A DNA stretch of 64,000 bases from Escherichia phage vB_Eco_J-01: sequence record PQ438393.1; one strand, 5' to 3'. This document shows, piece by piece, positions 11,501 through 11,824 of this stretch. Numbering within the stretch: the stretch's first letter is position 1; every line of letters begins with the position of its first letter. The position numbers and the translations under genes are program-made. Under the pieces are notes generated by a model. The model made no database searches, was not told where the DNA came from, and was given only the letters and a program-made list of their open reading frames with translations.

Positions 11501-11824
11501 TTATTTTAAAATAGTAGATGAACCACGTCTGTTTAGATATGCAATAGTAAAGTCCAAATCACCTATTTCTTCAGGTTCCCACTGACCTTCTAAGCCATAA
11601 CAAGAACAATGATATGCGTGTACTTCATAAAACAAAGATGTTTTCATATCATAAAAATAAACGTGAGATTCGCCTTCATAATATGCACAATCATAAGTGG
11701 CAGAAAGAATTACAATGTTATCCTTATCTAACTCTACTTCATAATATCTTTCAACATCTTCAATATCATCAAAACCATCGAAAACATTGATATTAAAATA
11801 TTTCTCTAACTCTTTTTCTGTCAC
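11501..11824 (-). CDS. hypothetical protein embedded in the tRNA cluster (Cys/His/Tyr-rich)
   Basis: track ORF runs into tRNA-Thr; trimmed to an in-frame GTG preceded by AAGGAG. Confidence 0.4.
   Translation of the reverse strand: MTEKELEKYFNINVFDGFDDIEDVERYYEVELDKDNIVILSATYDCAYYEGESHVYFYDMKTSLFYEVHAYHCSCYGLEGQWEPEEIGDLDFTIAYLNRRGSSTILK

Follow-up and report, generated by a model that had tools for sequence, protein, structure and literature searches.

Protein-coding genes that share a transcript with tRNAs are known from the bacterial mixed tRNA-mRNA operons, e.g., thrU-tyrU-glyT-thrT-tufB of Escherichia coli, and from the tRNA-punctuation model of mitochondria. In phages, segB of T4 is an open reading frame (ORF) within the tRNA region and encodes a homing endonuclease (PMC2330249), and the current view of phage tRNA arrays is that they counter defences that cleave tRNA (PMC10264068, PMC13096335). 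The locus described here lies in Escherichia phage vB_Eco_J-01 (PQ438393.1), of which a stretch of 64,000 nucleotides (nt), called the window below, was analyzed; it is an ORF of 107 codons between two tRNA genes, and its product belongs to the protein family PHROG 8792. The gene itself is already known as Phi92_gp112. The new point is the linkage at the level of the family: direct adjacency to same-strand tRNA genes is a recurrent property of its members in unrelated phages. The locus comprises the following features (positions are those of the window).

11501..11824, minus strand: coding sequence (CDS) of 107 amino acids (aa) plus stop, GTG start; ortholog of Phi92_gp112 by sequence, member of PHROG 8792
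11830..11835, minus strand: Shine-Dalgarno sequence AAGGAG, 5 nt before the GTG, read from the sequence
11847..11921, minus strand: tRNA-Thr(UGU) with encoded CCA, directly upstream of the CDS (ARAGORN, Rfam)
11371..11445, minus strand: tRNA-Gly(UCC), directly downstream of the CDS (ARAGORN, Rfam)
10391..13136, minus strand: tRNA array enclosing the CDS, 16 genes predicted by ARAGORN, all on the minus strand, plus one found by Rfam only

Over this region the window was 99.7% identical to Escherichia phage Antha and 99.4% identical to phage phi92 (genus Justusliebigvirus). Judged by sequence, the ORF is the ortholog of Phi92_gp112 (YP_009012444.1), annotated as "conserved hypothetical protein": the two proteins are 98% identical, and the phi92 record carries an identical 324-nt CDS annotation between tRNA-Thr and tRNA-Gly, i.e., the same gene in a sister phage with no difference in arrangement. 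A protein with at least 95% identity was found by tblastn in 55 phage records, and a terminase fragment of the window likewise matched 55 records at this threshold; since the counts are equal, the gene is taken to be fixed in Justusliebigvirus (55/55 genomes), and with an ortholog in all 55 genomes it is not a chance ORF but a known gene, on record with an annotation in dozens of phi92-like genomes. That it is a real gene is virtually certain. The match to PHROG 8792 (E=6.7e-44) covered residues 3-106 of the protein and positions 2-106 of the 116 positions of the profile.

The reading of 107 aa runs from a GTG at 11822-11824 to a stop codon at 11501-11503. The mechanical ORF is longer (11501-11923, 140 aa, TTG start) and reads through tRNA-Thr, as an earlier note made from the letters of the window had recognized, and the trimmed start is justified because of this overlap. 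The AAGGAG lies 11 nt past the encoded CCA at the 3' end of tRNA-Thr. A scan of start candidates selected the same GTG, and homologs with 48-52% identity start at the equivalent residue. The ribosome-binding site and in-frame GTG named in the earlier note are thus confirmed by the sequence, the phi92 CDS and the homolog starts, and the nesting of a protein-coding gene between same-strand tRNA-Gly and tRNA-Thr by the ARAGORN positions and the PHROG 8792 match, while the length of "roughly 105 aa" is exactly 107 aa. Of the epithet "Cys/His/Tyr-rich" only the tyrosine part stands (12/107); with 3 Cys and 3 His the remainder was overstated, and with 14 Glu and 10 Asp beside the 12 Tyr, "Tyr-rich and acidic" is the better description. 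Only tRNAs were matched by an Rfam scan for a hidden RNA element within the ORF.

The linkage to tRNA genes was analyzed in 80 loci of the family from IMG/VR, taken with 5-kb flanks and falling into 57 clusters at 80% core identity. A tRNA was present in 33 of the 80 loci, and the nearest same-strand tRNA lay within 650 nt of the family gene in 29, within 250 nt in 23 and within 100 nt in 22 of them. A tRNA-adjacent family gene is found in at least 17 independent lineages. The gene follows tRNA-Thr and precedes tRNA-Gly in Citrobacter phage Tr1, as in the phi92-like phages and in locus L008; it stands between tRNA-Ile and tRNA-Asn in the T5-like Proteus phage Stubb, between tRNA-Asp and tRNA-Ser in T4-like Proteus phages, and after tRNA-Thr in the jumbo phages of the CBB/GAP32 type (followed in CBB by an annotated tRNA-Val). 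More than 10 further metagenomic lineages have other flanking tRNAs, and the pairs include Pro/Asp, Ile/Ile, Glu/Ala, Asp/Ser, Thr(GGU)/Asn, Arg/Val, His/Glu, Arg/Lys and Ala/Gln. The earlier note had proposed checking whether related tRNA clusters keep the ORF in this position, and they do, even across unrelated phage families.

The spacing was similar among these lineages. The distance from the 3' end of the upstream tRNA to the start codon was 16-30 nt in nine of the lineages tabulated (22 nt in the window), with the Shine-Dalgarno sequence in between, and the distance from the stop codon to the downstream tRNA ranged from -18 to +68 nt in about 19 lineages (55 nt to the 5' end of tRNA-Gly in the window); a tRNA within 70 nt past the stop is the typical arrangement of the tRNA-adjacent members. 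In a T5-like Proteus phage (L003:2834-2839) and in a contig of a cyanobacterial metagenome-assembled genome (L109:5319-5336) the stop codon lies inside the downstream tRNA as delimited by ARAGORN, and therefore cleavage by RNase P would strip the stop from the mRNA. In a rough neighbour-joining tree, the versions from enterobacterial phages, which represent four unrelated phage families and are all tRNA-embedded, formed one clade, and the remaining tRNA-adjacent members were scattered among non-adjacent ones.

A second sample, drawn from another collection (Logan, ENA, JGI and NCBI), consisted of 11 members picked solely for their long contigs. A same-strand tRNA was located within 461 nt in 8 of the 11, and in five members it began 27-33 nt past the stop. 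In L221 and L222 the adjacent tRNA (or tRNA pair) is the sole tRNA in 10 kb; therefore, the link is with the tRNA gene as such and not merely with arrays.

The profile search recovered 2,422 representatives of the family at 50% identity and 6,451 clusters at 90%, and no Pfam domain or informative name was found among these clusters, the names being only "hypothetical" or a spurious "integrase". Homologs of similar length reach down to about 35% identity and occur in phages of Gram-negative and Gram-positive hosts: among isolated phages, in T5-like and T4-like phages of Proteus and Morganella, in jumbo phages of the CBB/GAP32 and phiKZ types, and in phages of Ralstonia, Xanthomonas, Bacillus and Brevibacillus. 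Only 25 loci were detected in 185,579 bacterial and archaeal species (one genome each), against 228 in IMG/VR, i.e., the family is essentially confined to phages. Its proteins are acidic (median isoelectric point (pI) 4.4, median net charge -11). Fusions are rare and gave no clue to function, one with a GmrSD_N/DUF262 domain (P0159) and others with no known domain; P0159 has 277 aa, with GmrSD_N/DUF262 at the N-terminus (E=1e-15) and then the family domain with the motif HCSCHGLEGQWSPEE. The protein of the window also matched PHROG 21421, labelled "integrase", more weakly, and the label has probably spread through this entry; members that carry it are NC_031056 (Deep Blue), NC_027355, NC_030925, NC_028749, PQ015378 and NC_071018 (Siara), all with no recombinase domain. 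A published account of the family, its motif, its tRNA linkage or phi92 gp112 was not found in the literature.

The most conserved part of the protein is a loop of 14 residues, H72-C-S-C-Y-G-L-E-G-Q-W-E-P-E85, encoded on the minus strand at 11570..11611 (codons checked against the sequence) and presumed to be the active or ligand-binding site. Its family consensus is H-C-S-C-Y-G-L-E-G-Q-W-x-P-E; the residues H, C, S and C together with E79 were invariant in alignments of 82 and of 150 diverse members, and G77, L78, Q81, W82 and P84 were conserved in at least 97% of the members. Further invariant or near-invariant residues are A42, Y44, Y49, G51 and V55 (Tyr44 invariant, Tyr49 near-invariant), and the protein of the window has both signatures complete, A-x-Y...Y-x-G at residues 42-51 and H-C-S-C...E...Q-W-x-P-E at 72-85. 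One His and two Cys are invariant family-wide, and Cys46 and the remaining His are variable. From this pattern we propose that the loop, Tyr44 and Tyr49 form a catalytic or a metal- or ligand-binding site.

The fold was predicted with confidence by AlphaFold2, both for the protein of the window (predicted local distance difference test (pLDDT) 94.5, predicted template modelling score (pTM) 0.87) and for a distant member (pLDDT 90.0); both models have the order beta-alpha-beta-beta-beta-loop-beta-alpha, with the motif within the long loop. Pfam had no model for the protein of the window and no significant match across the 82 members, searches of PDB sequences with the single protein and with the profile were empty, and Foldseek searches of the two models against PDB gave nothing significant (best E=0.24-0.35, template modelling (TM) score at most 0.41). 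Against BFVD, the Foldseek matches were uncharacterised family members alone. DUF7574 (PF24459) was reached by 2 of the 82 members at E of about 0.02 and by Foldseek at E=0.62 and TM 0.36, all below threshold. The check by homology and structure prediction that the earlier note had suggested thus yielded a large family and a confident fold, and no relative in PDB or Pfam.

Several known families were considered and rejected. An integrase or recombinase is excluded by the missing Pfam recombinase match in the protein, in the 82 members and in the 166-aa "integrase" of Deep Blue, and 107 aa is too small for one. Homing endonucleases (HNH, GIY-YIG, LAGLIDADG, His-Cys box) were not matched in Pfam, PDB sequences or Foldseek, and the patchy distribution typical of them is contradicted by the presence of the gene in all 55 genomes of the genus. 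For a Cys-X5-Arg phosphatase or rhodanese, the residue six positions past Cys73 is the invariant Glu79 and not Arg; the top weak Foldseek matches were to PTP1B (E at least 0.35, TM at most 0.33). A classical zinc finger needs four Cys/His ligands and just His72, Cys73 and Cys75 are conserved, with which a metal site that uses fewer ligands, or that forms between the two subunits of a dimer, would be compatible. A 2H phosphoesterase needs two H-x-T/S-x motifs against the single H-C-S-C motif here, and no Pfam or fold match to it was found; the motifs of ADP-ribosyltransferases and 2H phosphoesterases were also dismissed by reasoning on spacing and fold. None of the characterised families considered fitted the Phi92_gp112 protein.

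The sites that bear on the transcription of the gene are the following.

12757..12786, minus strand: promoter-like site (TTGACA, 18 nt, TAGATT), the nearest strong candidate upstream, before tRNA-Ser
11457..11486, minus strand: promoter-like site (TTGACA, 18 nt, TAGAGT, with TG), past the stop codon and before tRNA-Gly, consensus match only
10259..10277, minus strand: terminator-like hairpin with T-run past the last tRNA (Ile), the only convincing one
12481..12645, minus strand: second ORF, Phi92_gp111 ortholog by sequence, PHROG 22441, probable start ATG at 12633, no Shine-Dalgarno sequence

The unit downstream of the promoter-like site at 12757-12786 would comprise tRNA-Ser, gp111, the tRNAs for Ser, Lys, Tyr, Asn and Thr, and gp112, and no terminator-like site was found between this promoter-like site and the ORF; the other same-strand terminator-like site (10675-10659) is inside tRNA-Met. 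The array is suggested to consist of several transcription units rather than one. With tRNAs on the same strand, gaps of 22 and 55 nt and no intervening terminator, the ORF has the layout of a gene embedded in a tRNA operon, and it is most probably co-transcribed with the tRNAs. It would be read from a polycistronic tRNA transcript, with no terminator within the unit, and the mRNA would be bounded by tRNAs, because the ribosome-binding site begins 11 nt past the CCA of tRNA-Thr and tRNA-Gly starts 55 nt past the stop. The ends of this mRNA would be products of the nucleases of tRNA processing, i.e., of RNase P at the downstream tRNA and of 3' processing at the upstream one, and translation would occur from the precursor or from a processed fragment that tRNA maturation has trimmed. 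Lying just before a tRNA, the gene would be co-expressed with the phage tRNAs, which, if this is true, would couple synthesis of the protein to tRNA expression.

Some further observations concern the array. Four promoter-like sites on the minus strand with a perfect TTGACA -35 box and extended TG are located in or at the edge of it (12898-12926, 12757-12786, 11457-11486 and 13440-13469), and it is these that suggest several transcription units. The tRNA found by Rfam only (12808-12886, minus strand; 38.6 bits against a gathering score of 29, no call by ARAGORN) is between tRNA-Leu(UAA) and tRNA-Ser(UGA), right after a promoter-like site. The interval from tRNA-Gln to tRNA-Gly is about 430 nt in phi92, where it includes gp113 ("rIII-like"), and about 100 nt in the window (11272-11370), where it carries the inverted repeat CGCTAGAG...CTCTAGCG; the short interval (about 100 nt) is shared by IMG/VR locus L007, and an indel polymorphism thus adjoins the gene at 11272-11370. 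The second ORF, which the earlier note had called weaker, does exist, with its likely start at 12633, and was found only in Justusliebigvirus (50 records, 90-98% identity). It differed from its relatives by 0 synonymous and 2 non-synonymous changes, and its coding status is weaker because its few differences are all non-synonymous. Four GenBank records titled "Campylobacter phage" (MG065639, MG065645, MG065656 and MG065689, i.e., A150, A145, C3 and A110a) are 99.6% identical to phi92-like phages of E. coli over the region and are probably mislabelled or contaminants.

The earlier note had called proteins embedded in phage tRNA arrays uncommon, which did not hold: the sampled arrays contain many ORFs, and T4 segB is a published case (PMC2330249). 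The identifiable ones form an endonuclease group (HNH, GIY-YIG, T5orf172) and a group of translation and RNA-repair proteins (RF-1/PCRF protein, PF09414 RNA ligase, AAA_33 P-loop kinase, cREC). At least seven lineages have a PF09414 RNA ligase gene no more than 5 kb from the family gene (L113/L115, L109, L016, L060, L099, L103 and L222), and the two genes overlap by 14 nt in L113/L115. The latter belong to a T7-like metagenomic lineage, in which the PF09414/PHA02142 ligase overlaps the end of the family gene (L113:6317-7378, L115) and is reduced to fragments in the sister contigs L114 and L116. An AAA_33 kinase is near the family gene in L054 (4-nt overlap), L223 and L227/L228, cREC shares the tRNA array with it in Proteus phage Stubb, and RF-1-like proteins are encoded in L044 and L218. 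The latter (L044:7014-7688, L218:8495-8857) have RF-1/PCRF or RF-1 alone (120 aa, ArfB-like), in or near tRNA regions, and L218 additionally encodes a peptide deformylase. In a Pfam census of 143 neighbours the genes were otherwise ordinary ones of replication and nucleotide metabolism, with no dominant partner, and no protein-coding neighbour recurred across lineages either in this census or in an all-vs-all clustering of neighbours. The domain cREC (PF20274) has been predicted by Aravind and co-workers to process cyclic phosphate ends in RNA-repair or NAD-centred conflicts (PMC7824862). In the window, three genes form an NAD and RNA-repair-type block beside the array.

13883-15616, minus strand: nicotinamide phosphoribosyltransferase gene, adjoining the array
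18584-18958, plus strand: cREC (PF20274) gene, 6.7 kb from the array
20962-21366, plus strand: gene of a polynucleotide kinase (PNK)-like P-loop ATPase, PHROG 2071/505

The reading that we favour, to which we give an even chance as a whole, is that the gene encodes a genuine acidic alpha/beta protein of 107 aa that is borne on a tRNA transcript and coupled to phage tRNA supply, translation or RNA repair. Judged by the gene neighbourhood, a function tied to tRNA, translation or RNA repair falls slightly short of even. Given their strong acidity, the proteins are unlikely to bind tRNA directly by electrostatic attraction; they more probably act on a protein partner, a metal or a small molecule. 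Beside replacement tRNAs, a protein that blocks a tRNA-targeting nuclease would be biologically plausible, but a motif that stays invariant in phages whose hosts differ so widely points to catalysis or to a universal ligand and away from an inhibitor engaged in an arms race. More tentatively, and on balance improbably, the family may act together with the phage tRNA genes in tRNA conflict, e.g., by neutralising an anticodon nuclease or by repair, modification or maturation of tRNA; the same low expectation covers, jointly, the proposal that the modelled His-Cys-x-Cys/Glu active site and the fold of the family are new.

A number of results weigh against this coupling, and they are also what makes a passive passenger a serious possibility, although one well below even: in this alternative the function is unrelated to tRNAs, e.g., that of a generic early host-takeover or anti-defence factor, and the arrays are permissive, highly transcribed, terminator-free places in which conserved tRNA sequences serve as recombination arms that move cassettes between phages. 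The tRNA link is not obligatory. Most family members are not beside tRNAs (a tRNA is missing from the 5-kb flanks in 47 of the 80 IMG/VR loci), phage Siara is a direct counter-example with three tRNAs and the family gene 11 kb from the nearest, and in PhiPA3, RSF1 and Deep Blue the gene lies among small early genes of the ordinary kind; elsewhere, too, the neighbours belong to replication and nucleotide metabolism. Arrays hold many unrelated ORFs, including selfish endonucleases, and tRNA genes are segments common to otherwise unrelated phages (157 records were matched by a 701-nt query, only 55 of them across at least 80% of its length). Moreover, we infer co-transcription and processing from layout alone, and neither Pfam, PDB sequences nor Foldseek gave homology to any tRNA- or RNA-acting family.

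Comparator families were near tRNAs at 650 nt in 10-26% of their loci, which likewise counts against a special role of tRNAs. For cREC (PF20274), picked blind for similar size and host range and then found to be an RNA-repair-associated domain, a tRNA was within 650 nt in 3 of 30 loci, against 29 of 80 for the family (Fisher p=0.009), a contrast that counts for the linkage; cREC is still of use as a comparator. For an AAA ATPase, the difference was large at 250 nt (1/69 against 23/80, p=2e-6) and not significant at 650 nt (18/69, p=0.22); this comparator is confounded because it was chosen for its co-occurrence with the family. All these p-values are rough and indicative only, because the loci are related by descent. 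The ATPase in question, an AAA-type protein of about 375 aa, is repeatedly located 200-640 nt from a same-strand tRNA (L150, L152-L155, L157, L159 and L125-L133).

What speaks against a passenger is the recurrence itself. No other ORF family in the sampled arrays recurs beyond one phage group, whereas the PHROG 8792 family recurs in 18 of the 25 sequence clusters whose locus has a same-strand tRNA. The identities of the flanking tRNAs vary between lineages, and therefore simple cassette exchange between cognate tRNAs fails to explain the pattern. L221 and L222 lack an array and have one or two tRNAs about 30 nt past the gene, the stop-to-tRNA spacing is stereotyped, and RNA ligase and kinase neighbours recur.

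A selfish element, i.e., a small SegB-like homing endonuclease that targets tRNA genes and has escaped recognition, is very unlikely, although it would account for repeated insertion between tRNAs. In the AlphaFold2 model a beta strand terminates at His72 and gives way to a loop, then a short strand and a helix, an order that loosely resembles a beta-beta-alpha-metal finger. In the fusion P0159 the family domain comes after GmrSD_N/DUF262, where GmrSD-type enzymes normally have a nuclease domain. Homing endonucleases are also the commonest identifiable ORFs in the sampled arrays, with T4 segB as the published example (PMC2330249). Against this stand the lack of a match to HNH, GIY-YIG, LAGLIDADG or any other nuclease in sequence or fold, the median pI of 4.4, which is atypical of DNA-binding nucleases, the fixation in 55/55 genomes of the genus and the stable inheritance in CBB-like jumbo phages, and the many members (the majority) that do not adjoin conserved target-like genes.

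A chance ORF or a mis-annotation (no protein, or an "integrase") is effectively refuted: the GTG start, too little variation within the genus for selection to be measured (1-3 synonymous and 1-3 non-synonymous codon changes, too few for a ratio of non-synonymous to synonymous rates, dN/dS) and the label "integrase" in some records and in PHROG 21421 might point to it, but the conservation whose absence, together with that of expression, the earlier note would have taken as the sign of a chance ORF is present in 55/55 genus genomes and in thousands of similar-length homologs down to about 35% identity from phages of Gram-negative and Gram-positive hosts, and it is joined by the invariant 14-residue motif, the confident fold predictions, a strong Shine-Dalgarno sequence at the correct spacing, and the lack of a Pfam recombinase domain in a protein too small for one.

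As a single gene the finding adds little, since the gene is known and array ORFs are commonplace; the pattern at the level of the family is a worthwhile lead. The family has about 6,450 clusters at the 90% level and no Pfam model, and it ranks with the larger groups of phage proteins that are wholly uncharacterised. Its 14-residue loop hardly varies between phages of Bacillus, Pseudomonas and Escherichia, its confidently predicted fold has no match in PDB, and its genes repeatedly adjoin tRNA genes and often have genes of RNA ligases and P-loop kinases nearby. If the favoured reading is true, a protein partner of tRNA arrays would be a new piece of the tRNA-defence story. The idea is easy to test, as phi92-like phages of the BASEL collection, such as EmilieFrey, PaulScherrer and JohannJBalmer, grow on E. 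coli K-12.

Compared with known systems, the protein resembles the immunity proteins of colicin E5 and colicin D, small acidic alpha/beta inhibitors of tRNA-cleaving nucleases of about 100 aa, in size, acidity and type of fold, with no similarity of sequence or fold detected. A metal can be chelated by a C-x-C, or by a His next to a Cys, with the help of backbone amides, as in the Cys-X-Cys metal "claws" of nitrile hydratase (C-S-L-C-S-C) and the His-Cys hook of nickel superoxide dismutase (NiSOD). The resemblance of L-C-S-C-Y in nitrile hydratase to H-C-S-C-Y in the family is at the level of the motif only, with no homology of fold or sequence; where nitrile hydratase has its third Cys, the family has Gly or Ala, and metal binding is putative. 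The mixed operon thrU-tyrU-glyT-thrT-tufB and tRNA punctuation are alike in that a CDS lies on a tRNA transcript with ends presumably made by tRNA processing (here judged from layout); there is no homology to that operon, and the ORF of the window has a tRNA on either side, 22 and 55 nt away. The domain cREC, one of the predicted accessory domains of phage RNA repair (PMC7824862), is likewise small and stands alone in phages, and both it and the family are tied to RNA ligases through their gene neighbourhoods, but it has an unrelated fold, belongs to an unrelated family and is itself rarely tRNA-adjacent (3/30 loci). T4 segB and the ORFs in the tRNA region of T5 come closest in setting, each being a protein gene among the co-oriented tRNAs of a large lytic phage. 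segB and most of the identifiable array ORFs encode GIY-YIG or HNH endonucleases, whereas the Phi92_gp112 family is acidic, has no nuclease signature and is fixed in its genus and, unlike the other array ORFs sampled, recurs in the arrays of many unrelated phages.

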